A stretch of 64,000 bases of DNA from a virus (Duplodnaviria; Caudoviricetes): the IMG/VR virus record IMGVR_UViG_3300016486_001578; one strand, given 5' to 3'. Position numbers and translations under genes: made by a program. Below, in pieces: positions 1,329 through 59,870 of this stretch (position 1 is the stretch's first letter; each line of letters opens with the position of its first letter). A model generated the notes under the pieces. That model ran no database searches, was not told the DNA's origin, and was given only the letters and a program-made list of their open reading frames with translations.

Positions 1329-1397
1329 GCAGGAGTAGCATAAGTTAATGTGCTAGACTTCCAGTCTAGAGATTCTGTTCAAATCAGACTCCTTGCT
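1329..1397 (+). tRNA. tRNA-Gly(TCC), somewhat degenerate
   Basis: Anticodon arm CTAGA-CTTCCAG-TCTAG and T-loop TTCAAAT. Acceptor stem GCAGGAG/TCCTTGC has one mismatch. Terminator hairpin at 1400-1427. Confidence 0.75.
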
Positions 1398-1473: not shown

Positions 1474-3098
1474 ATGAAAAAAGATATAATAGACAAAATA
1501 TTAGATAATAAAAGGAATCGACTCAGGGAGTCATACTTTATTAAAAATCATACTGATATATATCTCGATATAAAAAATACACAGAAAACCTAGAAATACC
1601 ATTCAAACAAAAAGTTTGGCATTGGGTAAATAATAAAGAATCATATATAGTATGTAGGTGTGGTAAGAAAACAACCTTTAATAAAAACTGGCTAGATGGA
1701 TATAGAAAGCATTGTAGTCAGATATGCGTTGGACTAGATAATGATATTAAAAAAAAGAGAGAAATTACTAATTTAAAAAAATATGGTGTTACTAATGTGG
1801 CAAAAAATATAGATATAAAGAAAAAACAAGAGTCTACTAATCTAAAGAGATATGGATATAAATCCAGTTTTCAAAATAAGGATGTTAGAAAAAAATGGAC
1901 TAATAATATGATGATAAAACACGGTATCAGTCACTATTTTAAGACCGATGAGTTTAAAGAGAAGTCTATTAATACAAACCAGAGTAAATATGGGGTTGAC
2001 TATTATGTACAATCTACTAATTATAAAAATGACTTAGATAATATGTTATTTGGTGATTTATTAAGAGATAATAATATAACCAAACACATATCCAAATATG
2101 AAAGCTTGGGTTATAAATTCATATCACTAGAAAATAGAAATTTAAAGCTAGAAAATAAAGAAGGATGTAAACACAAATTTGATATATCATATGATGTTTT
2201 TATGAGTAGATCTAAAAATGACTATGAGGTATGTACAATATGTAATAATATAAAGAGTGGTCAATCCAATAAAGAAAAGAAGATAATTGAATGGTTACAC
2301 ACCATCGTTTATAATGTAATAGAGAGAGATAGAGAGTTTGGTGTGGAGGTTGATATATACCTACCAGAATATAATTTAGCAATAGAGTTTAATGGGCTAT
2401 ATTGGCACTCAGAGGAATATAAGGATAAAAAATATCATTTAAATAAAACAAACATTCTTAAAAAGGCAAACATTAGCCTTATTCATATCTGGGAAGATGA
2501 TTGGGACTATAAACAAGATATAGTAAAGTCTATAATATTGAATAAACTATACCTCATAAATAATAAGGTATATGCTAGAAATTGTAAGGTTTCATTGGTT
2601 AATAAGGTAGATTCTAATGATTTTCTTGATTCTAATCATATACAAGGAAAAACAAGATCTCTATATAATATTGGATTATATCATAGAGAAAAATTGGTTA
2701 GTATTATGTGTTTTAATTATAAAAATGGATCTAGTAAAAATGATATTGAATTAGTTAGATTCTGTAGTAAAATAGATACGGTTGTTATTGGTGGTTCTAG
2801 TAAATTGTTTAATTTTTTCATAAAGAAGTATAAATTTAATAAAATTATATCATTCTCTGATATTAGCCTATTTGATGGTGGTCTATACGAAAAGTTAGGG
2901 TTCACAAATACCGAAAATACACCACCCAACTTTTGGTGGATAGTCGATAAAAAAAGAATTAATAGGTTTAGATATAATAAATCTAGGTTAGTAAAAGATG
3001 GATATGACAAAAATAAAACAGAATACCAAATAATGTCAGATATTGGTAACAGTAGAATATGGGGATGTGGTTTGAAAAAGTGGATTTGGTACGAATAA
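1474..3098 (+). CDS. Free-standing putative homing endonuclease with Zn-finger, KYGV repeats and a C-terminal PD-(D/E)XK-like domain; frameshift in the A-run near 1572-1577
   Basis: ATG at 1474 follows a TTAATATATA motif. The frame of ORF 1797-3098 extends back to about 1575 (CRCG..HCSQIC). Motifs EVDIYLPEYNLAIEFNGLYWHS and IHIWEDDW. Paralog of 52991-54964. Confidence 0.7.
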
Positions 3099-40485: not shown

Positions 40486-40650
40486 ATGTCAGGAATTAAA
40501 GATAAGACATTCGTATTAAGGGTATCACAAAGACTATTGGAGGAATTTAGAGAATTTTGTGATGAAAACTCTATTAATATGAGTAAGAGGTTAAGAAAAT
40601 ATATGGAAAATGATATAGAGGCTTGGAAGAAAAGAAAAAGTGAAAATTAA
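40486..40650 (+). CDS. Small ribbon-helix-helix DNA-binding protein (not in ORF track)
   Basis: MSGIKDKTFVLRVSQRLLEEFREFCDENSINMSKRLRKYMENDIEAWKKRKSEN. Confidence 0.7.
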   Translation: MSGIKDKTFVLRVSQRLLEEFREFCDENSINMSKRLRKYMENDIEAWKKRKSEN

Positions 40651-40685
40651 TTTAATATATACACTATATAAAAAATACACATATA

Positions 40686-41777
40686 ATGAAGCACGTAAGG
40701 TCATATAGTAATTATAAGAAACATAAAAATACACAAGAAAAATTCAATGAGAATATCTTAATTCTTAAAGATATTGAACTAAGCTCAAGTGATGAGAATT
40801 TTTTCATGGATATTTTTGAGAAAGTCTTAAATAATTATAAGATAGATGAGAGCATAAAGTTAGAAATAAGAGAATATATATCAAATGAGAGCCTTAATGA
40901 AAACTTCTTTGATAAGCTAAAAGAAAGGTTTCCAAAAGCAGCAGAAGTATCAAAACTACTATCAGATAAAGCAGAGTCTACACTTGGTAACATTCTAAAT
41001 AAGGTTAAAGACTTAGTATCTTTTGTTAATAAAATAGCAATAGGTATCAAAGAATTATTTATAATGTTTATAGAAAGTGGTAAGAAATTCTTTATGGAGC
41101 AACTTAAAATGGGCAAACTTAAAGAAAAGCTAGAAGAACTTAAACAAAGTAAAAAAGAAGGACTTGTAAAAGAACTTAAACTTATAAAAGAGATATTAAC
41201 CTTTTATAGAAAAGGCTTCGTTGAAAAAGTAACCAATACTATACAGACCAACCTTTCATCGTTCTTTGGTAGTGAACAAGAAGCAGTTGTTGAATCACTA
41301 CTACTTGAAAAAGGAAATGTACTTTCCACATTAGTTCATAAGATAGAAGCAGTTCCACCATTCTCAATATTGCATAAAATTGCATCAGGAGCTGAAAAGG
41401 GTGCTAATGTATTAATACAAGGGGCAAGTGAATTTACTAAAAAAATGGGAGGACCAGAGTTTCAGCTACCAGTGGTTGCATTGTTAGTAGGATTATCAAT
41501 TGAGTATATGGTTAAGAGTTCATCAGGACATTGGTTGCTTGATTTAGTTGGACCAACACCTCTTGGTATGGCAATAAAGGGTGTTAAAATTACGGCAACA
41601 CTTATTGCTCTACTAAGTGCTATTGACGGTATTTTCGGAACAGAACTTATTGGTAGTGCTCATCATGGTGAAGAAGTTAAAATGAAAGATAAAGTGGATG
41701 TTAATCCTGATCAAGAAGAAGTTGATGATAAAGAAAAACCGGTTGTAAATGTTCAAGCAGAAGGTAAAGAAGAATAA
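40686..41777 (+). CDS. Hypothetical virion/internal protein with a hydrophobic C-terminal half
   Basis: MKHVRSYSNY N-terminus; several (L/I)xE sites; terminator at about 41780-41806. Confidence 0.55.
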   Translation: MKHVRSYSNYKKHKNTQEKFNENILILKDIELSSSDENFFMDIFEKVLNNYKIDESIKLEIREYISNESLNENFFDKLKERFPKAAEVSKLLSDKAESTLGNILNKVKDLVSFVNKIAIGIKELFIMFIESGKKFFMEQLKMGKLKEKLEELKQSKKEGLVKELKLIKEILTFYRKGFVEKVTNTIQTNLSSFFGSEQEAVVESLLLEKGNVLSTLVHKIEAVPPFSILHKIASGAEKGANVLIQGASEFTKKMGGPEFQLPVVALLVGLSIEYMVKSSSGHWLLDLVGPTPLGMAIKGVKITATLIALLSAIDGIFGTELIGSAHHGEEVKMKDKVDVNPDQEEVDDKEKPVVNVQAEGKEE

Positions 41778-44769: not shown

Positions 44770-45015
44770 ATGTTTAAAATTAGAATTATAGCACAAAAAG
44801 TTTTATGCTTACTAGGTATACTAACTTCTATATTATTTATACCATATGAGTATATTATTAATAATATAGAAATTTCACCAGGTGGAACTATCGGGATGTT
44901 AGTTATATCTTTTTGTATTTTTATATTATGTATGGATGGTTTGATTGAGACAAATAATAAAGAAACAAAATATAACATATTCACAATTAATAATGATTGG
45001 AAATATAAAAGATAA
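44770..45015 (+). CDS. Small two-TM membrane protein
   Basis: Two hydrophobic segments. Confidence 0.5.
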   Translation: MFKIRIIAQKVLCLLGILTSILFIPYEYIINNIEISPGGTIGMLVISFCIFILCMDGLIETNNKETKYNIFTINNDWKYKR

Positions 45016-45018
45016 AAT

Positions 45019-45285
45019 ATGATTAAGAAGTTTGAAAATTTTGGAGAATCTAAGCTAAGTAAAGTGTGGTATTTAGAATTATATGATTTACAATATTCTC
45101 TAGTAGAGAATGATCCACTATTTATAGAGATAGAAGAATGGGTAAGTGATAATGATCATAATAATGGTTATGCATACTCTTGGAAAGTAGGAGAAGATGA
45201 TACTGCATATCCACTACTAGATAAGTATTTCATAAATAATGGGCTTATAAAAGATGATATAGTCATAGTGCATTGTCTTTGGTAA
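45019..45285 (+). CDS. Hypothetical protein with capsid-targeting-like N-terminus
   Basis: MIKKFENFGES. Confidence 0.6.
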   Translation: MIKKFENFGESKLSKVWYLELYDLQYSLVENDPLFIEIEEWVSDNDHNNGYAYSWKVGEDDTAYPLLDKYFINNGLIKDDIVIVHCLW

Positions 45286-45510
45286 GATAAAGAATTTAAT
45301 TATTAGTATAAACGAATTTAAAACAAAAACTATGGGATATTTTATTATAACACTAATCTTTTTATTTATATGTGTGTTATTTTACAAACTTACGAATGTG
45401 AATTGGTATCATCAATTTTTAACACAAGATTTTAAAGATAAAGATTGGTTCACGAAACTTGTTAAATGGTTGGTGAATTGATTTTTTATTAAAATAAAAT
45501 AGAAAATAAA

Positions 45511-45542
45511 TTTGCAGGTATAAAAACTTTGTTATATATTTG
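45511..45542 (+). promoter_or_regulatory. Bacteroidota-type promoter upstream of the tRNA operon leader
   Basis: TTTG (45511-14), 20 nt, TATATTTG (45535-42). Confidence 0.7.
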
Positions 45543-45596
45543 TAGTATAATTAAAGAAAAACAAAAAGGAACAATAATAAATTAATATATAAAATT

Positions 45597-45753
45597 ATGA
45601 ACACAACAACTTTAAATACAAACTTATCACTGAGATCTCTTTTATTAAGAGAAGGGTCGGGATTTGTCTTATTTGAACGTTGTGATAGTAAATAATTACT
45701 ATAATAATATATCTAATACAAACCCGATACTCATAAAAGTATCGGGTTTTTTT
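45597..45753 (+). promoter_or_regulatory. Leader-peptide attenuator of the tRNA cluster (leader ORF 45597-45695)
   Basis: Leader MNTTTLNTNLSLRSLLLREGSGFVLFERCDSK. Antiterminator TCGGGATTTGT (45657-67) pairs with ACAAACCCGA (45718-27). Terminator AAACCCGATACT/AGTATCGGGTTT plus T tract ends 2 nt before the first tRNA. Confidence 0.75.
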
Positions 45754-45755
45754 AT

Positions 45756-45839
45756 GCACTTGTGGTGGAATTGGTAGACACCCTGGTCTTAGAAGCCAGT
45801 GCTCGGAAGAGCGTGAGAGTTCGATTCTCTCCAAGTGTA
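45756..45839 (+). tRNA. tRNA-Leu(TAG), long variable arm
   Basis: CTGGT-CTTAGAA-GCCAG; canonical D and T loops. Confidence 0.95.
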
Positions 45840-45846
45840 CTATAAT

Positions 45847-45933
45847 GCGGCTATGATGAAATTGGTAGCACATGCTAGACTTAAAATCTAGTGGATAGTA
45901 ATGTCCGTGCGGGTTCGACTCCCGCTAGCCGTA
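45847..45933 (+). tRNA. tRNA-Leu(TAA), long variable arm
   Basis: CTAGA-CTTAAAA-TCTAG; GTTCGACTC T-arm. Confidence 0.95.
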
Positions 45934-45940
45934 CAAAAAT

Positions 45941-46013
45941 GGCCCTATGGTGTAACTGAATAACACACACGCCTTCTAAGCGTATATTCCAAGTTTGAAT
46001 CTTGGTAGGGTCA
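45941..46013 (+). tRNA. tRNA-Arg(TCT)
   Basis: ACGC-CTTCTAA-GCGT; acceptor GGCCCTA/TAGGGTC. Confidence 0.85.
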
Positions 46014-46026
46014 CAAAAAATTAAAT

Positions 46027-46101
46027 GCTCTGGTAGCCCAATTGGAAGAGGCAATAGTTTTAGAAACTATACAGGTGTGGGTTCAAATCCCACTCGGAGT
46101 A
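46027..46101 (+). tRNA. tRNA with TAG (Leu) anticodon but a short variable loop
   Basis: ATAGT-TTTAGAA-ACTAT; variable region of only about 5-6 nt; discriminator A. Confidence 0.8.
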
Positions 46102-46105
46102 CAAT

Positions 46106-46186
46106 GTCTCAGTAGTCCCAGTTGTCTTCTAAACAACTACGGGTAATTGGATGCTGAAAATATAGGTTCGAATCCTATCTGAGACA
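46106..46186 (+). ncRNA. Non-canonical tRNA-like RNA (TCT anticodon hairpin, no D-arm at the normal position)
   Basis: Perfect acceptor GTCTCAG/CTGAGAC-A and T-arm ATAGG-TTCGAAT-CCTAT. AGTTGT-CTTCTAA-ACAACT lies only 7 nt after the acceptor stem. Confidence 0.65.
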
Positions 46187-46191
46187 CAAAT

Positions 46192-46242
46192 ATCTTGGTG
46201 GTGAAACCGTGTACGCTGCGGGTTCGACTCCCGTCCAAGATA
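46192..46242 (+). ncRNA. Mini tRNA-like RNA (acceptor stem plus T-arm, no anticodon arm)
   Basis: ATCTTGG/CCAAGAT-A; GCGGG-TTCGACT-CCCGT; 51 nt. Confidence 0.6.
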
Positions 46243-46257
46243 CAAAATGAAAGTAAA

Positions 46258-46431
46258 ATGATAATAGAGATAGATAATAAGACATATTTGGTAGAACCTT
46301 GTAAGCATTGTAAAAGAGATGATATCATTTATATAGAGAGTGATTTACCATGGAGTGATAGTAAATTTATATGTGATTTCTGTTGCTCTACCTATTCAAT
46401 ATTTGATACTAATATAGCAAATAAGATATAA
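46258..46431 (+). CDS. Small Zn-ribbon-like protein inside the tRNA cluster
   Basis: MIIEIDNK...CKHC...CDFCC. Confidence 0.5.
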   Translation: MIIEIDNKTYLVEPCKHCKRDDIIYIESDLPWSDSKFICDFCCSTYSIFDTNIANKI

Positions 46432-46450
46432 ATTTGAATAAGAAAAATAA

Positions 46451-46524
46451 GGCTTTGTATCATAATCGCATAATGAAATAGTTTCCTAAACTATCCTATG
46501 TGGGTTGGAATCCCTCCGAAGTCA
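46451..46524 (+). tRNA. tRNA-Arg(CCT), degenerate T-loop
   Basis: ATAGT-TTCCTAA-ACTAT; acceptor GGCTTTG/CGAAGTC; T-loop TTGGAAT. Confidence 0.7.
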
Positions 46525-46542
46525 CAAATAAAAAAATAAAAT

Positions 46543-46647
46543 ATGAAAACTAAAAATACATTACTACTACTACTCAAAGAATGATTCTTCTTTAGTATAG
46601 TAATACCTTATACTCAAGTCTTATCATTAATTTGATAAGACTTTTTT
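46543..46647 (+). promoter_or_regulatory. Leucine leader-peptide attenuator of leuS (leader ORF 46543-46584)
   Basis: ATG AAA ACT AAA AAT ACA TTA CTA CTA CTA CTC AAA GAA TGA = MKTKNTLLLLLKE. Terminator AAGTCTTATCA-TTAATT-TGATAAGACTT-TTTT (46616-47) ends 26 nt before the leuS ATG. Confidence 0.85.
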
Positions 46648-46673
46648 GTTAAAAAAAATTAAAAATATAAATC

Positions 46674-48299
46674 ATGAATATAAAAGAAATAGAAAAAAAG
46701 TGGCAAAATAAATGGATAGAAGATAATTCATTTAAATTTGATGTAAACTCTAATAAAGAGAAGAAGATTATCATACCTATGTTTCCTTACCCCTCTGGTA
46801 ATATACATATGGGTCATATGAGAAATTATACAATATCGGATGTGATTGCTAGATATTGGCGAAATAAAGGATTTAACGTTTGTCATCCAATGGGTTGGGA
46901 CTCATATGGTTCACCAGCAGAAAGTGCTGCTATAAATAATAATGTACATCCAAAAGAATGGACTGATATCAATATTAAGAATATGAAAGAGCAAATGATT
47001 AGAATGGGTATGTCATTTGATTGGAGTAGAGAAATATCAACATGCGAGGTAGACTATTGGAAAAATGAACAGAAGTTCTTTATTGATATGTGGAAAAAAG
47101 GATATATTGATAAGAAGATTGGTTATGTAAACTGGGATCCAATAGATGAGAGTGTGGTTTCAAATGAACAAGTTATAGATGGTAAAGGGTGGAGAACAGG
47201 TGCTATAATAGAACAAAAAGAAATGATACAATATTACTTTAAAACAACTATGTTTAAAGATGATATGATGAATGTATCCTCTTGTGAAGAATGGCCTGAT
47301 AATATTACTAAGCAACAAGTAAACTTCATGAGTAAGGGTATAAGAAATGGTGATGATATAAACCCATTCTCAGATTGGTGTGTATCAAGACAGAAATATT
47401 GGGGAACACCAATACCTATGATCAATTGTGACAAATGTGGAACTATTCCAAATGAGAATATCCCAGTAGTAGCACCAATTGATGTTGACTTTAATGGAAA
47501 GGGTAATCCTATAAGAAATCATGCAACATGGGCGAATATAAAATGCCCAAATTGTGGTGGTGATGCTGAGAAAGAAACAGATACAATGGATACATTTGTT
47601 CAATCATCTTGGTACTTTATAAGATATATCTCAGATTTTTTTAATGGTGAGTTCGATCATGATGTTATTAAAAAAATGTTCCCAATTGATTACTATATTG
47701 GTGGCTCAGAACATGCTAATAGTCATATGATTTATTCTAGATTTTTTTGGAGAGTTTTTAAAGAAATGAATTATATACCTAAAAATACCTCAATAGAACC
47801 ATTTAAAAAAGTAATAACACAAGGTATGGTGAAAAATGGTGGGAAAAAGATGAGTAAATCAGCAGGTAATGGTATATCACCAATTGATGTAGTTGATAAA
47901 TATGGTTGTGATGTTGTAAGAATGTATATGATGTTCAGTGGACCAGTTGAACAAGATATTGATTGGAATGAAGATGGTATAAAAGGTGTGTCTAGATTTA
48001 TAACTAAAATTATAAATGCTATAACTAAAATAAAAGATAAAGATTTCATATATATTAAAAATGTAAAAAATGAACAAATATCTAAAACTAAAATAGAAGA
48101 ATTGAATAAAAGAATTGAAAATGTATATGAAGATAATATGAAATTTAATACAATAATAGCATTTTCAATGGAAACATATAATGCAATATCAAAAACAACT
48201 GATATAAATATATGGAAAGAGGGAATAGATACCATAATGCGTGGTATAGGTCCAATAATTCCACATATTTATAGTGAAAATTATGAAAATTATGAATAG
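46674..48299 (+). CDS. leuS: Minimal leucyl-tRNA synthetase (no CP1 editing domain, no C-terminal domain)
   Basis: MFPYPSGNIHMGH, GWDSYG.PAE, DWCVSRQKYWGTPIP, ETDTMDTFVQSSWY, YIGGSEHA, KMSKS; 541 aa. Confidence 0.92.
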   Translation: MNIKEIEKKWQNKWIEDNSFKFDVNSNKEKKIIIPMFPYPSGNIHMGHMRNYTISDVIARYWRNKGFNVCHPMGWDSYGSPAESAAINNNVHPKEWTDINIKNMKEQMIRMGMSFDWSREISTCEVDYWKNEQKFFIDMWKKGYIDKKIGYVNWDPIDESVVSNEQVIDGKGWRTGAIIEQKEMIQYYFKTTMFKDDMMNVSSCEEWPDNITKQQVNFMSKGIRNGDDINPFSDWCVSRQKYWGTPIPMINCDKCGTIPNENIPVVAPIDVDFNGKGNPIRNHATWANIKCPNCGGDAEKETDTMDTFVQSSWYFIRYISDFFNGEFDHDVIKKMFPIDYYIGGSEHANSHMIYSRFFWRVFKEMNYIPKNTSIEPFKKVITQGMVKNGGKKMSKSAGNGISPIDVVDKYGCDVVRMYMMFSGPVEQDIDWNEDGIKGVSRFITKIINAITKIKDKDFIYIKNVKNEQISKTKIEELNKRIENVYEDNMKFNTIIAFSMETYNAISKTTDINIWKEGIDTIMRGIGPIIPHIYSENYENYE

Positions 48300-52990: not shown

Positions 52991-54964
52991 CTAAGTATAT
53001 AAGAATAGTTCATACTTTATTTTACCACAATCCCATATTCTATATAAACCAATGGATCTCATATAAGTGCTCTCAGTTATTTTCGACCCTTTTATCCCTA
53101 GTTTACTTTTTTTAAACCTAGATTTATGGACCCTTTTGTTTTCTGTGATGTATTTATAATCAGGATTAGACATACTCACTAATTTAAATTTTAAATTCAG
53201 ATAAAGATTACCAAGTGACCAATCTCTATCTGCATAACTAATTACCCTAGTTGGGTTGTAATTTTTGATAAAGAAATTTAATAATTTACTAGCCCCACCA
53301 ACAACAGACATATTTAATTTATTGCAAAATCTTGATAAATTCCAACCACTTTCTTCCATCTTCTTCCGACCTTCATTTTTATCAAAGGTCATAATAGATA
53401 TTAGTTCTTTTTTGTAGAATAAACCAATTGATACTTTGTTATTTGAAGAACCTCCTTGTATGTGATTATCATTTAAAAATTCATTAATGGTTTTATAATC
53501 CTTTATTTCTTTAACAACACAATTTCTGGCATATATCCTTTCGTTGGTTAATCCCAACCAATTTATAATTTGACTTTCTAGTATATTTCTTTTGAATGTC
53601 CAATCATCTTCCCAGATATGAATAATCCTTATTCCTTTTTCTTCAAAGTGTCTACTCTTATTTAAATGATAGTTTTTATCTTTAAATTCTTCTGAGTGCC
53701 AATATAACCCATTTAATTCAAATCCTATTTTTAATTCCGGTAAATAAATATCAATTTCTAAACCATCACGATATGATTGAATTATTTTACCATCATATAT
53801 TGAATCTATAAAATTAAATAGTTCTTTTTCTTTTATTGAAACTGAATCACCAATTGGATTACAAACGGTACATAGAGGGATATTTGATTTTTTTCTCTTT
53901 GTGTAATTATCAATATCTATATCAAACTCATGTGGAAGGTCATAATCACAAGAAAATAAAGAAATTCCATTATTTTTGTACTCTATATAATACATGTCAT
54001 TGGTTATTCTATATTTTAGCCTATATTCTATATTTTTACTTATATGCTCCTCATTATATTTTTCAATATTTGTCTTTTTGATTTTATCTGATATCTCTTT
54101 TATTGAATTCAAGTTGAGCGTTCCGTATTTTTTTATTATTGAACTTCTTATCTTATTCTTTACCCTATCTGATTTTGATGGATTATCAACTCCATATCTG
54201 TCTATATTTGTTGATTTTATTTTATTTTTTATATCAATATTCTGTATTGGAAATTCTACTCCCAATTTTTTAAAATTAGTTTTTTTTAGTTTAGTTATAA
54301 AATCTTTGTTCTGTAAAGCATACTCAACTCCATATCTTTCTAACATAGTTTCTTTTGTCTTTTTCTTAAACTCGTCCAATTTTAGTGGATTATCAACCCC
54401 ATATTTTTCTAAGAAGTAGGATCTTAATTTGCTCTTTATTTCCTCTGAATGCATAGCATACTCAACTCCATATCTTTCTAACATAGTTTCTTTTGCCTTT
54501 TTCCTTATACTATCAACCCTTGATGGATTATCAACCCCATATTTATTGATGTTAGTTTTCTTTGTCTTTTTGATGATAGATATATTTTGTGTTGCCCAAT
54601 CATGTCCAAATTTTTTGTTATTTGTGGCTTTTACTCTATCCTTTATACCTTTTGACTTTGATGGATTATCAACCCCATACCTTTTTAAGTTAGTTTCTCT
54701 TCTCTTTGATTTAATAGACTTGCTATTATACATACACTTTCTAGAACAAAAATTTCTAAACCCATTTATCATATCAATGAACTTAACCTTATTTCCACAA
54801 TAACAAATAGGTAGCACCTTCATATCATTTTCATATAGATAGAATTTTTCTTTAAATGTTGTATAGTCTATTTTTTTATCACTTATTGATAGCCACAAAT
54901 CATAATTTTTTTTCTTAATACCATTTTCTGATAATCTATATAACTCTGTGTTCTTTGTTTCCAT
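52991..54964 (-). CDS. Free-standing putative homing endonuclease with about nine KYGV-type repeats (paralog of 1474-3098)
   Basis: CYCG..FCSRKC; repeated T.(L/I).(K/R)YGV(D/E); EIDIYLPELKIGFELNGLYWHS; IHIWEDDW. Confidence 0.75.
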   Translation of the reverse strand: METKNTELYRLSENGIKKKNYDLWLSISDKKIDYTTFKEKFYLYENDMKVLPICYCGNKVKFIDMINGFRNFCSRKCMYNSKSIKSKRRETNLKRYGVDNPSKSKGIKDRVKATNNKKFGHDWATQNISIIKKTKKTNINKYGVDNPSRVDSIRKKAKETMLERYGVEYAMHSEEIKSKLRSYFLEKYGVDNPLKLDEFKKKTKETMLERYGVEYALQNKDFITKLKKTNFKKLGVEFPIQNIDIKNKIKSTNIDRYGVDNPSKSDRVKNKIRSSIIKKYGTLNLNSIKEISDKIKKTNIEKYNEEHISKNIEYRLKYRITNDMYYIEYKNNGISLFSCDYDLPHEFDIDIDNYTKRKKSNIPLCTVCNPIGDSVSIKEKELFNFIDSIYDGKIIQSYRDGLEIDIYLPELKIGFELNGLYWHSEEFKDKNYHLNKSRHFEEKGIRIIHIWEDDWTFKRNILESQIINWLGLTNERIYARNCVVKEIKDYKTINEFLNDNHIQGGSSNNKVSIGLFYKKELISIMTFDKNEGRKKMEESGWNLSRFCNKLNMSVVGGASKLLNFFIKNYNPTRVISYADRDWSLGNLYLNLKFKLVSMSNPDYKYITENKRVHKSRFKKSKLGIKGSKITESTYMRSIGLYRIWDCGKIKYELFLYT

Positions 54965-55039
54965 ATCTAGTAATTATTTAATTTATATATTAAACTATCT
55001 ATGTTATGTTTTGTATAAATATCAAATAAAATATAAAAT

Positions 55040-56743
55040 TTGTTAGTAGACACTCAATATAAAAATGGTAAGTTAATAGTCAGTTACGTGGATAAAACTG
55101 GTGGAATAAAATTAAAATATTATAATTGGGACAATCCAATGAAATATATAACTTGTGATGATGATGATAATGGTAAACATCCTAATTATAAATCATGGGA
55201 TGGTAAATCAGTAAAACAAGTAGAAGTAAATTACCCTGATAGATACGCAGTTTATGAGTTTCTGGATTCTCTCCCAGAGGAAGAAAGATTGGAGATATTT
55301 GAATTTAATACTCCTAAAATATATTTCATAGATATTGAAACAGAAATTGTTGATGGGTTTCCCGAGGCTGAAGACATCTTAGATAAAGAGGGTAATGTCA
55401 AAAAAGAAGGAGCCTGTACTAGTGTGTTATCTATATCAGTTGTTTATGATGATAAAATCATATTACTTGGTCTTAGGGATATGCCACAAGACATGCAAGA
55501 CAGAATAAAGAACAATACAAACAAATACTTCAAGAAGATAAATAATGACATAGATTATAAATTTAAATACGTTAAGTATGATGATGAATTTGATATGCTT
55601 TATAACTTTTTCTATAAGATGGTTCCTAAAATGCCTTTATTGACTGGGTGGAACTTCCTTAATTATGATTGGTTGTATTTAGTGAATAGAGCAAAGAAAT
55701 TAAAAAAATACACAAATGGTAAAGAATATGTTATAAACCCAGCAGTTTCATCTCTCACAAAGAGGTTGAATAAAAAATGGGGTTCTAATTGTGAGCTACC
55801 AGCTCATAGAATGATTTTTGATTATATGCAATTATATGAAATAGCCGATTCTTCTATTAAAGTTAAAGAAAGTTCTTCATTGGATTTTGTTTCTGGTAAA
55901 TTAGTTGGGGTTGATAAGATTAAATTCATAAATTCTATATTCAAATTAAACCAAGATTGCTCTATGAAAGGATATGATTTTAAACAAGATGAAATTTGCC
56001 GAAAAGATGGTGATGGTTATTATATGTATGTTGGTACTGATAGAATCGAATTTAGTCTATCGGAGTTTTCATCTTATAAAGACTTATTTAGAGAAGTAAA
56101 TGTTTCTAACTTACAAACATTATACAATGAGGATTTTGAGATTTATATGTACTACAATGCGGTGGATTCGGTTCTTGTTCAAAAAATACACGAATCTCGT
56201 AATTATATATCAATAATATTTGCGATATCTTCCTTAGCACAAATTAAGATAGTTGATGTAGTTTCATCAATGAATAATGCTTTGGGATCATTGGCTATTA
56301 CAGAGGGAGTTTTAAGAAATAGATTTAGAAATCAAGATAATATTGTCTTATTTAAAGAAGAAAAACATGATGCTGAATCTACCATTGCTGGTGGGTGGGT
56401 AAAAGACCCTGTTATGGGTATGAATCAGTGGGTTGTTTGTTATGATTTTGCGAGCTTGTATCCTCGCACCCAGGCGCAGTTCTTTATATCACCAGAGAAC
56501 TTTATAGGGGTTCAATCATCTTCTGATAAGACACTATGTACCAATGGTGAGTCAATACATCCAACAAATCATGTTGTTTGTGTCAATGGTGTGGTTTTTA
56601 ATAAGAGGATGTCCCCAACACTATTGATGTTAGAGGATGTCTATTCTGATAGAAAGAAAAATAAGAAGATAATGATGGATAAGAAAGAGGAACTAAATGA
56701 CGTACTTTTGGAGATAGCTAAGTTGGAATCCGATTTGGTATAA
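55040..56743 (+). CDS. Family B DNA polymerase, N-terminal subunit (exonuclease plus motif A) of a split enzyme
   Basis: FIDIETE, TGWN...YDW, YNAVD, GGWVKDP, YDFASLYP; ends before motif B (KxxxNSxYG) and motif C (DTDS). Confidence 0.85.
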   Translation: MLVDTQYKNGKLIVSYVDKTGGIKLKYYNWDNPMKYITCDDDDNGKHPNYKSWDGKSVKQVEVNYPDRYAVYEFLDSLPEEERLEIFEFNTPKIYFIDIETEIVDGFPEAEDILDKEGNVKKEGACTSVLSISVVYDDKIILLGLRDMPQDMQDRIKNNTNKYFKKINNDIDYKFKYVKYDDEFDMLYNFFYKMVPKMPLLTGWNFLNYDWLYLVNRAKKLKKYTNGKEYVINPAVSSLTKRLNKKWGSNCELPAHRMIFDYMQLYEIADSSIKVKESSSLDFVSGKLVGVDKIKFINSIFKLNQDCSMKGYDFKQDEICRKDGDGYYMYVGTDRIEFSLSEFSSYKDLFREVNVSNLQTLYNEDFEIYMYYNAVDSVLVQKIHESRNYISIIFAISSLAQIKIVDVVSSMNNALGSLAITEGVLRNRFRNQDNIVLFKEEKHDAESTIAGGWVKDPVMGMNQWVVCYDFASLYPRTQAQFFISPENFIGVQSSSDKTLCTNGESIHPTNHVVCVNGVVFNKRMSPTLLMLEDVYSDRKKNKKIMMDKKEELNDVLLEIAKLESDLV

Positions 56744-57559: not shown

Positions 57560-58324
57560 ATGATGAAATACCTAAAAATATTTGAAAACTTTAATTCTGA
57601 TGAGAAAATTCATGAAATTTGTAAAAAATATAATATCAAAAATTATACTATAAATCCGGATGGATCAATAGATGTTGATGGTGATGTTTATTTATATAGA
57701 AAAGGATTAACTAAAATTCCACTGAAGTTTAGAAAAGTTAGTGGATATTTTGATTGCCATGATAACCAATTAACTTCACTAGAGTTTGCTCCAACTTCAG
57801 TCGGTGGATATTTTAATTGTTCTAGTAATAAATTAACTTCATTAGAAGGTGCTCCAACTTCAGTCGGTGGCGGTTTTTATTGCCATTATAATCAAATAAC
57901 TTCACTAGAGTTTGCTCCAACTTCAGTCGGTGGTAATTTTTATTGTAATAATAATAAATTAACTTCATTAGAAGGTGCTCCAACTTCAGTCGGTGGATAT
58001 TTTTATTGCCATGATAACCGATTAACTTCATTAGAAGGTGCTCCAACTTCAGTCGGTGGAGATTTTAATTGCAATTATAATCAAATAACTTCATTAGAGG
58101 GTGCTCCTCTTTCAGTCGGTGGTAATTTTTATTGTAAAAATAATCCAGTCTATGAAGTCTGGAAATTATTTAAAGATTTGGATAAAATAGAAATTCTAAG
58201 TGATTCTGACATCTTTAGGGAGGTTGATGGAAAGCCCGGTATTATTTTAGATAGGCTAAATTCATTCTTAGAAGACATAGGAAAAGGATCGGTTAATAAA
58301 GTTGAAGGATATATTAATATATAG
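57560..58324 (+). CDS. LRR-like 22-aa repeat protein 1
   Basis: MKYLKIFENF N-terminus; six LTSLE(G/F)APTSVGGxFxCxxN-type units. Confidence 0.85.
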   Translation: MMKYLKIFENFNSDEKIHEICKKYNIKNYTINPDGSIDVDGDVYLYRKGLTKIPLKFRKVSGYFDCHDNQLTSLEFAPTSVGGYFNCSSNKLTSLEGAPTSVGGGFYCHYNQITSLEFAPTSVGGNFYCNNNKLTSLEGAPTSVGGYFYCHDNRLTSLEGAPTSVGGDFNCNYNQITSLEGAPLSVGGNFYCKNNPVYEVWKLFKDLDKIEILSDSDIFREVDGKPGIILDRLNSFLEDIGKGSVNKVEGYINI

Positions 58325-59870
58325 TTTAATGAAGCACCTAAAAATATTTGAAAACTTTAATTCTGATGAGAAAATTCATGAAATTTGTAGAAAATATAAT
58401 ATCGAAAATTATACTATAAATCCGGATGGATCAATAGATGTTGATGGTGATGTTTATTTATATAGAAAAGGATTAACTAAAATTCCACTGAAGTTTAGAA
58501 AAGTTAGTGGTCATTTTTATTGCCATAATAACAAATTAACTTCATTAGAGGGCTCTCCAACTTCAGTCGGTGGTGATTTTAGTTGTGATGATAATAAATT
58601 AACTTCATTAGAAGGTGCTCCAAAGTCGATCGGTGGAGATTTTAATTGCAATTATAACCAATTAACTTCATTAGAAGGTGCTCCAACTTCAGTTGGTGGT
58701 AAATTTAATTGCGGTGGTAACCAATTAACTTCATTAGAAGGTTCTCCAACTTCAGTCGGTGGATATTTTTATTGCCATGATAACCGATTAACTTCATTAG
58801 AGTTTGCTCCAACTTCAGTCGGTGGTAATTTTGATTGTCATAATAACAAATTAACTTCACTAGAGTTTGCTCCAACTTCAGTCGGTGGAGGTTTTTATTG
58901 TCATAATAGCAAATTAACTTCATTAGAAGGTGCTCCAACTTCAGTCGGTGGTGATTTTTATTGCCATTATAACCGATTAACTTCATTAGAGGGCTCTCCA
59001 ACTTCAGTCGGTGGTGATTTTTATTGTGATAATAATCAATTAACTTCATTAGAAGGTGCTCCAACTTCAGTTGGTGGTAAATTTAATTGCCATGATAATC
59101 AAATAACTTCATTAGAAGGTTCTCCTCTTTCAGTCGGTGGCCATTTTTATTGTTATAATAATCCAGTCTATGAGGTATACAATCTATTCAATGATAAAGA
59201 CAAAATAGAACTTCTAAACGACTATGACATCTTTAGAAAGGTTAATGGAAACCCAGCTATTATTTTAGATAGGCTAAATTCATTCCTAGAAGACATAGGA
59301 AAAGAATCGGTTACTGAAGTTAAAGGATATATTAATATATAGTTTAATGAAACACCTAAAAATATTTGAAAACTTTAATTCTGATGAGAAAATTCATGAA
59401 ATTTGTAAAAAATATAATATCGAAAATTATACTATAAATCCGGATGGATCAATAGATGTTGATGGTGATGTTTATTTAGATGAAGAATCATTAACTAAAA
59501 TTCCACTGAAGTTTAGAAAAGTTAGTGGTCATTTTTATTGCAATTATAACCGATTAACTTCATTAGAAGGTTCTCCAACTTCAGTCGGTGGAGGTTTTTA
59601 TTGCCATGATAACCAATTAACTTCATTAGAAGGTGCTCCAACTTCAGTTGGTGGAGGTTTTTATTGCCATAATAATCAAATAACTTCATTAGAAGGTGCT
59701 CCAACTTCAGTCGGTGGTGATTTTTATTGCCATAATAACCAATTAACTTCATTAGAAGGTGCTCCTCTTTCAGTCGGTGGCCATTTTCATTGCCATTATA
59801 ATCAAATAACTTCATTAGAGGGTGCTCCTCTTTCAGTCGGTGGTAATTTTTATTGTAAAAATAATCCAGT
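57730..59870 (+). repeat. 66-bp coding repeat arrays (TTAACTTCATTAGAAGGTGCTCCAACTTCAGTCGGTGG...) in three tandem paralogs
   Basis: Direct inspection shows about 21 units. Confidence 0.9.
58329..59342 (+). CDS. LRR-like 22-aa repeat protein 2
   Basis: MKHLKIFENF; ten units. Confidence 0.85.
   Translation: MKHLKIFENFNSDEKIHEICRKYNIENYTINPDGSIDVDGDVYLYRKGLTKIPLKFRKVSGHFYCHNNKLTSLEGSPTSVGGDFSCDDNKLTSLEGAPKSIGGDFNCNYNQLTSLEGAPTSVGGKFNCGGNQLTSLEGSPTSVGGYFYCHDNRLTSLEFAPTSVGGNFDCHNNKLTSLEFAPTSVGGGFYCHNSKLTSLEGAPTSVGGDFYCHYNRLTSLEGSPTSVGGDFYCDNNQLTSLEGAPTSVGGKFNCHDNQITSLEGSPLSVGGHFYCYNNPVYEVYNLFNDKDKIELLNDYDIFRKVNGNPAIILDRLNSFLEDIGKESVTEVKGYINI

Follow-up and report, generated by a model that had tools for sequence, protein, structure and literature searches.

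A probable leader-peptide attenuator upstream of a tRNA-Leu/tRNA-Arg operon in a huge phage

Introduction

Transfer RNA genes are usually regarded as being controlled at their promoters, through growth rate and the stringent response, and not by the decoding capacity that they supply. The 64,000-nucleotide stretch of viral DNA analysed here (the window) contains a tRNA array preceded by a promoter, a short reading frame rich in leucine and arginine codons, and an intrinsic terminator, an arrangement that raises the question of what a terminator in such a position would do and what part the reading frame would have in its action. Our analysis indicates that this element very probably works as a transcription attenuator of the ribosome-mediated, leader-peptide kind, with a phage tRNA-Leu/tRNA-Arg operon under its control, and that the phage probably makes these tRNAs only when ribosomes read Leu or Arg codons slowly.

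Results

Source phage and genomic setting

The window comes from an uncultured huge phage, whose LeuRS is placed by its protein-database record on a contig of 548,945 bp; the GC content of the window is 27%, and the sequencing runs listed as containing its DNA are salt-lake metagenomes, with no RNA run among them. Four DNA runs were compared, of which contigs from X2 and X3 cover the leader; the X2 copy is identical, and no natural variants of the helices were found among these runs. The closest relative of the 541-residue window LeuRS shares 78% identity with it, and the LeuRS of LR756501.1, a 735-kb uncultured phage, is 64% identical. The genome of this 735-kb phage has been assigned to the 'Mahaphage' clade, with Bacteroidetes as predicted hosts (PMC7162821). 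In a bacterial host, which this prediction implies, translation can accompany transcription, the condition under which an attenuator could in principle operate.

Phage-type genes in the window comprise a split family-B DNA polymerase, a thymidylate synthase, an R2K ATP-grasp protein and DUF7487 proteins. The DNA polymerase B reading frame is only 567 residues long and lies beside DUF7487 proteins (window 52991-56743, 1797-3098), one of which also carries a restriction-endonuclease-like domain; this layout suggests a polymerase gene split by mobile endonuclease genes. Two short hairpin-forming motifs were also observed inside coding regions, one in four copies on the plus strand (58041-59656) and a second in three copies at 207-nt spacing (minus-strand positions 40594-41026), and both are probably repeat units of repetitive proteins.

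Anatomy of the leader

The first-pass annotation had described a promoter, a 32-codon reading frame, an antiterminator, a terminator and a close spacing to tRNA-Leu, and when the region was checked base by base every one of these features was found where it had been placed (Table 1). We conclude that the leader-peptide attenuator extends from 45511 to 45753. The transcript probably starts near 45549, and AATATATAAAAT stands directly 5' of the leader ATG, a feature common to the related leaders; the missing Shine-Dalgarno sequence is expected for a Bacteroidota host. Support for the promoter comes from the association of the -7 motif with leaders: TAnnTTTG lies 13-110 nt upstream in 10 of the 14 leaders able to have their own promoter, where about 0.1 per leader would be expected. 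A generic sigma-70 scan is non-discriminating in this AT-rich DNA. When the entire window is considered, the complete two-box pattern shows no enrichment (six found versus four expected). Elsewhere in the group, just 5 nt separate the end of TAtaTTTG from an ATG in two relatives, that of the leuS leader in L088 (3866-3976) and that of leuS in L092 (immediately upstream of 5001), gaps which imply leaderless or nearly leaderless mRNAs.

The core of the reading frame is the L-S-L-R-S-L-L-L-R originally proposed, codons 10-18 being TTA TCA CTG AGA TCT CTT TTA TTA AGA. The density of Leu and Arg codons in the leader (8 in 13) is reached by 0.4% of 1436 short reading frames in these phage loci, a null set that includes the leaders themselves, and six Leu in 13 codons are reached by 2.8% of random short reading frames; two AGA codons in 14 are not significant alone.

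The leader RNA folds far better than its shuffled counterparts (z = -5.65, 0/200). Its minimum-energy fold combines a long hairpin in which the control codons pair with region 2, the small hairpin across the stop codon and the terminator, a combination that the modelling identifies as the 'off' state. A shorter hairpin of TCTCTT (45636-41) with AAGAGA (45647-52), which had been likened to the pause stem of a classical attenuator, does exist over the control codons but proves to be the tip of the real 1:2 helix (45602-45684). The antiterminator pairing of TCGGGATTTGT (45657-67) with ACAAACCCGA (45718-27) was confirmed as 5+5 bp with one bulged A, and the extended 2:3 duplex (45652-68 with 45717-31) reaches -13.9 kcal/mol, a value reached once when the upstream segment was shuffled 500 times. 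In the terminator, a left arm (45720-31), loop (45732-37) and right arm (45738-49) precede a T-run that ends at 45753, and tRNA-Leu(UAG) starts at 45756, leaving the 2 nt between them that had been reported.

This tight adjacency is also what would be seen if the hairpin were a plain terminator or RNA-processing signal of the neighbouring genes, abutting the 5' end of the first tRNA, with the reading frame and the complementarity there by chance; such a reading would be in keeping with the absence of enrichment for simple terminator-like sites in the 12-kb region (4 found, 2.9 expected). Yet the leader is separated from the upstream gene by a promoter motif, the gap from terminator to first tRNA runs from roughly 10 to 430 nt in relatives so that adjacency is not conserved, a 2:3 pairing as stable as this one is rare among shuffles, and the permutation tests on codon assignment and covariation given below argue against chance. 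We consider a plain terminator or processing signal the least probable of the explanations weighed here, with only a very slight chance of being correct.

Table 1. Predicted elements of the attenuator, the genes behind it, and leaders of tRNA arrays in related phages
Feature	Position	Strand	Remarks
Promoter: TTTG (45511-14), 20-nt gap, TAtaTTTG (45535-42)	45511-45542	+	Bacteroidota -33/-7 type
A-rich 5' untranslated region, without Shine-Dalgarno	45549-45596	+	mostly unpaired in centroid fold
Leader reading frame, 32 codons + stop	45597-45695	+	ATG 45597, TAA 45693-95
Control codons 6-18: TTA, TTA, CTG, AGA, CTT, TTA, TTA, AGA	45612-45650	+	most of the 5' strand of the 1:2 helix
1:2 helix (anti-antiterminator), long imperfect hairpin	45602-45684	+	minimum-energy fold; sequesters region 2 without a stalled ribosome
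Region 2, antiterminator 5' strand, codons 19-24	45652-45668	+	mimics right arm of terminator
Small 7-bp hairpin across stop codon, between regions 2 and 3	45685-45702	+	from fold
Region 3, antiterminator 3' strand and terminator left arm	45717-45731	+	from duplex and folds
Intrinsic terminator (3:4): 12-bp stem, 6-nt loop, seven-T run	45720-45753	+	-16.4 kcal/mol
Regulated unit (tRNA operon)	45756-46525	+	
tRNA-Leu(UAG)	45756-45840	+	
tRNA-Leu(UAA)	45847-45934	+	
tRNA-Arg(UCU)	45941-46014	+	
tRNA-Leu(UAG), short-arm	46027-46102	+	
Two tRNA-like RNAs	46105-46186 and about 46190-46240	+	
57-codon reading frame with two CxxC pairs (zinc-ribbon-like)	46258-46431	+	between tRNA-like RNAs and tRNA-Arg(CCU)
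tRNA-Arg(CCU)	46451-46525	+	
Second attenuator in series: 13-codon leader, five consecutive Leu codons	46543-46649	+	terminator 46616-46643
Short leuS gene	46674-48299	+	directly behind second attenuator
Leaders of tRNA-Leu arrays in relatives	L001:2346-2414; L002:3026-3103; L004:2382-2471		22-29 codons, Leu-rich
Leader in L088, central codons YYEEYE	L088:8160-8249		tRNAs behind: Glu, Tyr, Glu, Glu, Tyr
Leader in L091, similar Tyr/Glu run	L091:8849-8935		Glu/Tyr array
Leader in L093, codons for K, H, S, F and W	L093:9921-9826	-	His, Trp and Lys tRNAs
Leader in L094, 12/13 codons M, Q, I or E	L094:5215-5135	-	Met, Gln, Ile and Glu tRNAs
Leader in L095, YNDYCIND	L095:3506-3438	-	Ile, Cys, Asp, Asn and Tyr tRNAs
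Second array leader in L002, similar to that of L095	L002:6703-6771		Ile/Cys/Asp/Asn/Tyr type
Leader in L096, 14/14 codons S, K, H, F or W	L096:5492-5397	-	Trp, His, Phe, Lys and Ser tRNAs
Leader in L098, 17/18 codons T, P, A, V, R or G	L098:9097-8969	-	Arg, Thr, Val, Ala, Gly and Pro tRNAs

Folding with a masked ribosome footprint

Comparison of leader folds with and without a masked ribosome footprint had been put forward as a check on the attenuator reading, and on a cut transcript the fold switches as the model needs. In these simulations a footprint of 28 nt was masked at each Leu, Arg or stop codon of the leader, and the transcript was cut just before the right arm of the terminator as a co-transcriptional approximation of the moment of decision. 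With the A site of the footprint on codons 6-15 the 2:3 antiterminator forms, and 11 of the 12 bases of the terminator left arm are paired upstream; a leader free of ribosomes adopts the 1:2 helix, with 5 of these 12 bases paired. The leaders of the three related Leu arrays (L001, L002, L004) switch likewise. Under a standard footprint, codons 17-18 stand so near region 2 that they make poor stall sites; the second and last AGA (codon 18), part of the core as first described, had therefore to be given up as a productive stall position.

In full-length equilibrium folds with a masked ribosome the terminator is kept in both the window and L004, and no switch is seen. For the window, the terminator is the more stable structure (-16.4 kcal/mol, against -13.9 kcal/mol for the antiterminator) and prevails wherever the ribosome is stalled, which means that the switch has to be kinetic, as it is in classical attenuators. 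The position of the stop codon relative to region 2 differs among the leaders: in the window it lies 26 nt past region 2, and a ribosome parked there leaves the 2:3 pairing unblocked in the cut-transcript fold; in L001 and L002 it abuts or overlaps region 2, and a terminating ribosome does mask region 2.

The same design in related phages

Relatives were sought through LeuRS: a search with an alignment gave three viral loci, a search with the single protein gave none in viral contigs, and a metagenome scan brought up so many bacterial LeuRS genes that only L036, a locus with no tRNAs, was taken from it. A tRNA-Leu array stands upstream of a short leuS in three related contigs (L001, L002 and L004; LeuRS 63-67% identical), and two of their three Leu leaders use all six Leu codons. 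Each of the three carries a copy of the right arm of its own terminator at codons 20-28 of the reading frame; from one phage to the next the stem changes, and region 2 changes accordingly. None has Arg among its control codons or an Arg tRNA in its array. Arg tRNAs stand beside Leu tRNAs only in the window array, and among Leu-class leaders Arg control codons occur only in that of the window.

These comparisons bear on the proposal that the leader senses both leucine and arginine. The leucine part is strongly supported. The arginine part is plausible and moderately supported, with two AGA codons of which one is well placed; its main support comes from the regularity seen across the family, in which every amino acid of an array is named by the leader in front, together with the lack of Arg control codons before Leu-only arrays.

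Counting beyond the Leu class, ten more tRNA arrays in eight related phage contigs share the design of the window, which makes eleven leaders in all. The shared order is promoter, short reading frame, a copy of the terminator right arm in the distal part of that frame, and terminator, and region 2 starts at codons 19-23 in 10 of the 11 array leaders. For the 735-kb phage, to which L094, L095, L096 and L098 belong, all 66 tRNA matches were located and every cluster was examined; the five leaders of this phage (those four and the Leu unit L001) together name all 20 amino acids. The true assignment of leaders to arrays is the unique best of 120 possible ones in the 735-kb phage, and the unique best of 5040 for the seven different amino-acid sets. 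Alignment of the leaders with MAFFT followed by RNAalifold misaligned the helices, the sequences being too divergent, and we instead used anchored duplex energies with a permutation test. Across the eleven array leaders, regions 2 and 3 from the same leader pair with a mean of -13.7 kcal/mol versus -8.9 kcal/mol for foreign pairs, and none of 100,000 random assignments equals the true one. Computation thus shows each of the elements in the sequence, the helices that can form in alternation and the way these are conserved and covary, as well as the match of codons to tRNAs across the eleven arrays. The attenuator reading, advanced at first for the window by itself, is in this way supported: its design, the compensatory changes and the codon-to-array match recur in ten other arrays, and the footprint-masked folds switch.

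The same data speak to the proposal that the reading frame encodes a real small hydrophobic peptide with an ordinary terminator behind it, the tRNAs being made by constitutive leak-through or by processing of longer transcripts and the leucine richness being that of a membrane peptide. The leader peptide is indeed hydrophobic, and Leu is common in short AT-rich reading frames; the peptides of the relatives, however, share nothing beyond an MN or MK start, and still their codon classes match the tRNAs behind them, in sets that include the non-hydrophobic Y/E and S/K/H. A copy of a terminator arm also lies at a like place in each frame and covaries with the terminator. Neither the codon matching nor the covarying arm copy is needed by a peptide gene, and we judge this explanation to be improbable.

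Another alternative is a translation-independent RNA switch, whether a T-box-like tRNA-binding element, a protein-binding element or a thermosensor, in which the open frame would be incidental. Such a switch would account for the strong structure of the leader, and the sensing of uncharged tRNA would also suit translation genes. Against it, the cognate codons are in frame with the ATG and before the stop in all 19 leaders examined, stops close both other frames of the window leader, and up to 18 cognate codons for five to six amino acids cannot be a single specifier. Nor was a T-box or other Rfam family found at threshold. In an Rfam scan of 44800-46800 the tRNAs alone pass threshold, and leader-family and sRNA matches are at chance level (Thr_leader, 20.2 bits with a threshold of 55; Trp_leader, 19.3 with a threshold of 41; E about 0.9), with no Leu_leader match and no T-box match at E up to 1 in that interval. 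A switch that works independently of translation appears even less probable than a peptide gene. As judged from sequence, the window element appears to work like the curated Rfam leader families, yet is not a member of them.

The leader-peptide design does not accompany every gene of these kinds. Some related leuS genes (L092, L093) and some phage tRNAs serve as leaderless controls, and tRNA-Gly(UCC) of the window (1329-1396) has no leader ORF and is flanked by strong terminators on either side (1247-1275, 1400-1424), so that gating of this kind does not extend to all phage tRNAs. In the 735-kb phage, no leader was found at an odd tRNA group with tRNA-Pro (L097). The same genome holds two adjacent tRNAs with CUA anticodons, of the amber suppressor type and 'Pyl' according to ARAGORN (L099; LR756501.1 689500-691500), which have TAtaTTTG just upstream but no leader ORF or terminator there.

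The tRNA array, the second attenuator and leuS

In the window leader the control codons are TTA, CTN and AGA, exactly those for which the array supplies tRNAs (UAA, UAG and UCU anticodons). In the codon use of the phage, TTA makes up 56% of Leu codons and AGA 74% of Arg codons. Several products of the array are unusual. Leu-anticodon tRNAs of 73-76 nt, which lack the long variable arm of bacterial tRNA-Leu, occur in the window (46027-46102) and in L001, L002 and L004, where they adjoin normal long-arm copies; they may be the partners of the minimal LeuRS. The two tRNA-like RNAs of the window have good acceptor and T arms around an aberrant middle, with one weak tRNA-Sec-like match of 24.8 bits, and similar odd tRNA-like elements with the same T arm are found in the arrays of relatives (L001, about 2517-2640 and 2832-2950).

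Behind the array, the candidate second attenuator has a weak antiterminator (-3.3 kcal/mol, no better than shuffles). Among related phage leuS genes, seven have a similar leader with at least three consecutive Leu codons and two (L092, L093) do not. The window LeuRS has no match to the editing-domain family PF13603, which is present in full-length bacterial homologues, and it belongs to a family encoded on huge-phage contigs, with members of about 540 residues that fall into more than 40 sequence clusters.

Discussion

The features described here provide a framework for how translation of a short leader could be converted into a decision to transcribe tRNA genes. Transcription would begin from the host-type promoter near 45549, and a ribosome would translate the 32-codon leader. 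When aminoacyl-tRNA for TTA, CTN or AGA is scarce, the ribosome would stall on codons 6-16 and hold region 1 open, so that region 2 (45652-68) could pair with region 3 (45717-31) as the latter emerges. Formation of this 2:3 helix would preclude the terminator, and RNA polymerase would enter the tRNA array and continue towards the second attenuator and leuS. If the codons are decoded rapidly, or if the leader is not translated, regions 1 and 2 would pair, region 3 would be left free, and the terminator would form, ending the transcript 2 nt short of the first tRNA. Any RNA extended beyond this first gate would then encounter a second, Leu-only one ahead of leuS. Leader translation, stalling, the efficiency of termination and the direction of regulation are elements of this scheme that we infer from the arrangement of the locus.

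The tRNAs of the array read the control codons, and the product would therefore relieve the signal that induces it, a negative feedback on decoding capacity. A leader read by the tRNAs under its own control would constitute a direct homeostat of codon-specific translation capacity, and an attenuator of this kind would explain how huge phages with AT-rich codons and dozens of tRNAs meter those tRNAs in a foreign host. A more speculative extension, which we regard as possible though somewhat doubtful, is that all tRNAs of the huge phages in this group are organized into demand-driven modules, of which the window would be a two-stage version. Were this modular organization true, the second attenuator would release the minimal LeuRS only if Leu decoding is still slow with the tRNAs present, the phage could tell a shortage of tRNA from a shortage of charging, and the sensors would also respond when tRNAs are lost to host anticodon nucleases or through the shut-off that the phage imposes on its host.

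The regularity in these leaders can be stated as a sequence rule, namely that the codon set of the leader equals the tRNA set of the array. Such a rule could be used to annotate phage tRNA operons, to identify odd tRNA-like genes and to build synthetic codon-specific sensors. It would also make testable the question of why phages carry tRNAs, since the sensor reveals the decoding shortages that a phage expects. In our literature search, neither tRNA genes nor phage genes were found to have been described as targets of leader-peptide attenuation, and the paper on the 735-kb phage contains neither 'attenuat' nor 'leader' (PMC7162821). The mechanism is a known one, in the style of the trp operon; its target, tRNA genes in a virus, appears to be unpublished.

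Comparison with known systems places the window element close to the leuL (Leu_leader RF00512), trpL, hisL and pheL attenuators. In these, as predicted for the phage leader, a short reading frame is translated that contains a series of codons for the amino acid being sensed; 1:2, 2:3 and 3:4 pairings are alternatives, and the genes under control follow an intrinsic terminator. The leuL-type attenuators regulate biosynthetic enzymes, whereas the window element stands before tRNA genes and has no sequence relationship to them; it is also viral, with a Bacteroidota-type promoter and without a Shine-Dalgarno sequence.

Several attenuators of E. coli are multivalent, the thr leader containing Thr and Ile codons and the ilvGMEDA and ilvBN leaders containing Leu, Val and Ile codons. 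In these as in the phage leaders, the codons of several amino acids are combined in one leader so that shortage of any one would relieve termination; here the logic would apply to Leu and Arg in the window and to as many as six amino acids in its relatives. The grouping differs, as the thr and ilv leaders follow biosynthetic pathways and the phage leaders follow the tRNA genes in the operon, and the phage products, unlike those of the thr and ilv operons, would feed back directly on the decoding of the control codons.

Among attenuators of translation-apparatus genes, the pheM leader of E. coli pheST places an aminoacyl-tRNA synthetase under attenuation control and, of the known systems, comes nearest to the second leader of the window, the one in front of leuS, although it is bacterial, controls a synthetase and has no arrangement in series with a tRNA array. 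T-box riboswitches likewise couple the state of a specific tRNA to the expression of translation genes through a choice between terminator and antiterminator. They differ in binding uncharged tRNA directly through one specifier codon with no translation, whereas the window leader offers a reading frame with many cognate codons, which would be read by the very tRNAs that it gates.
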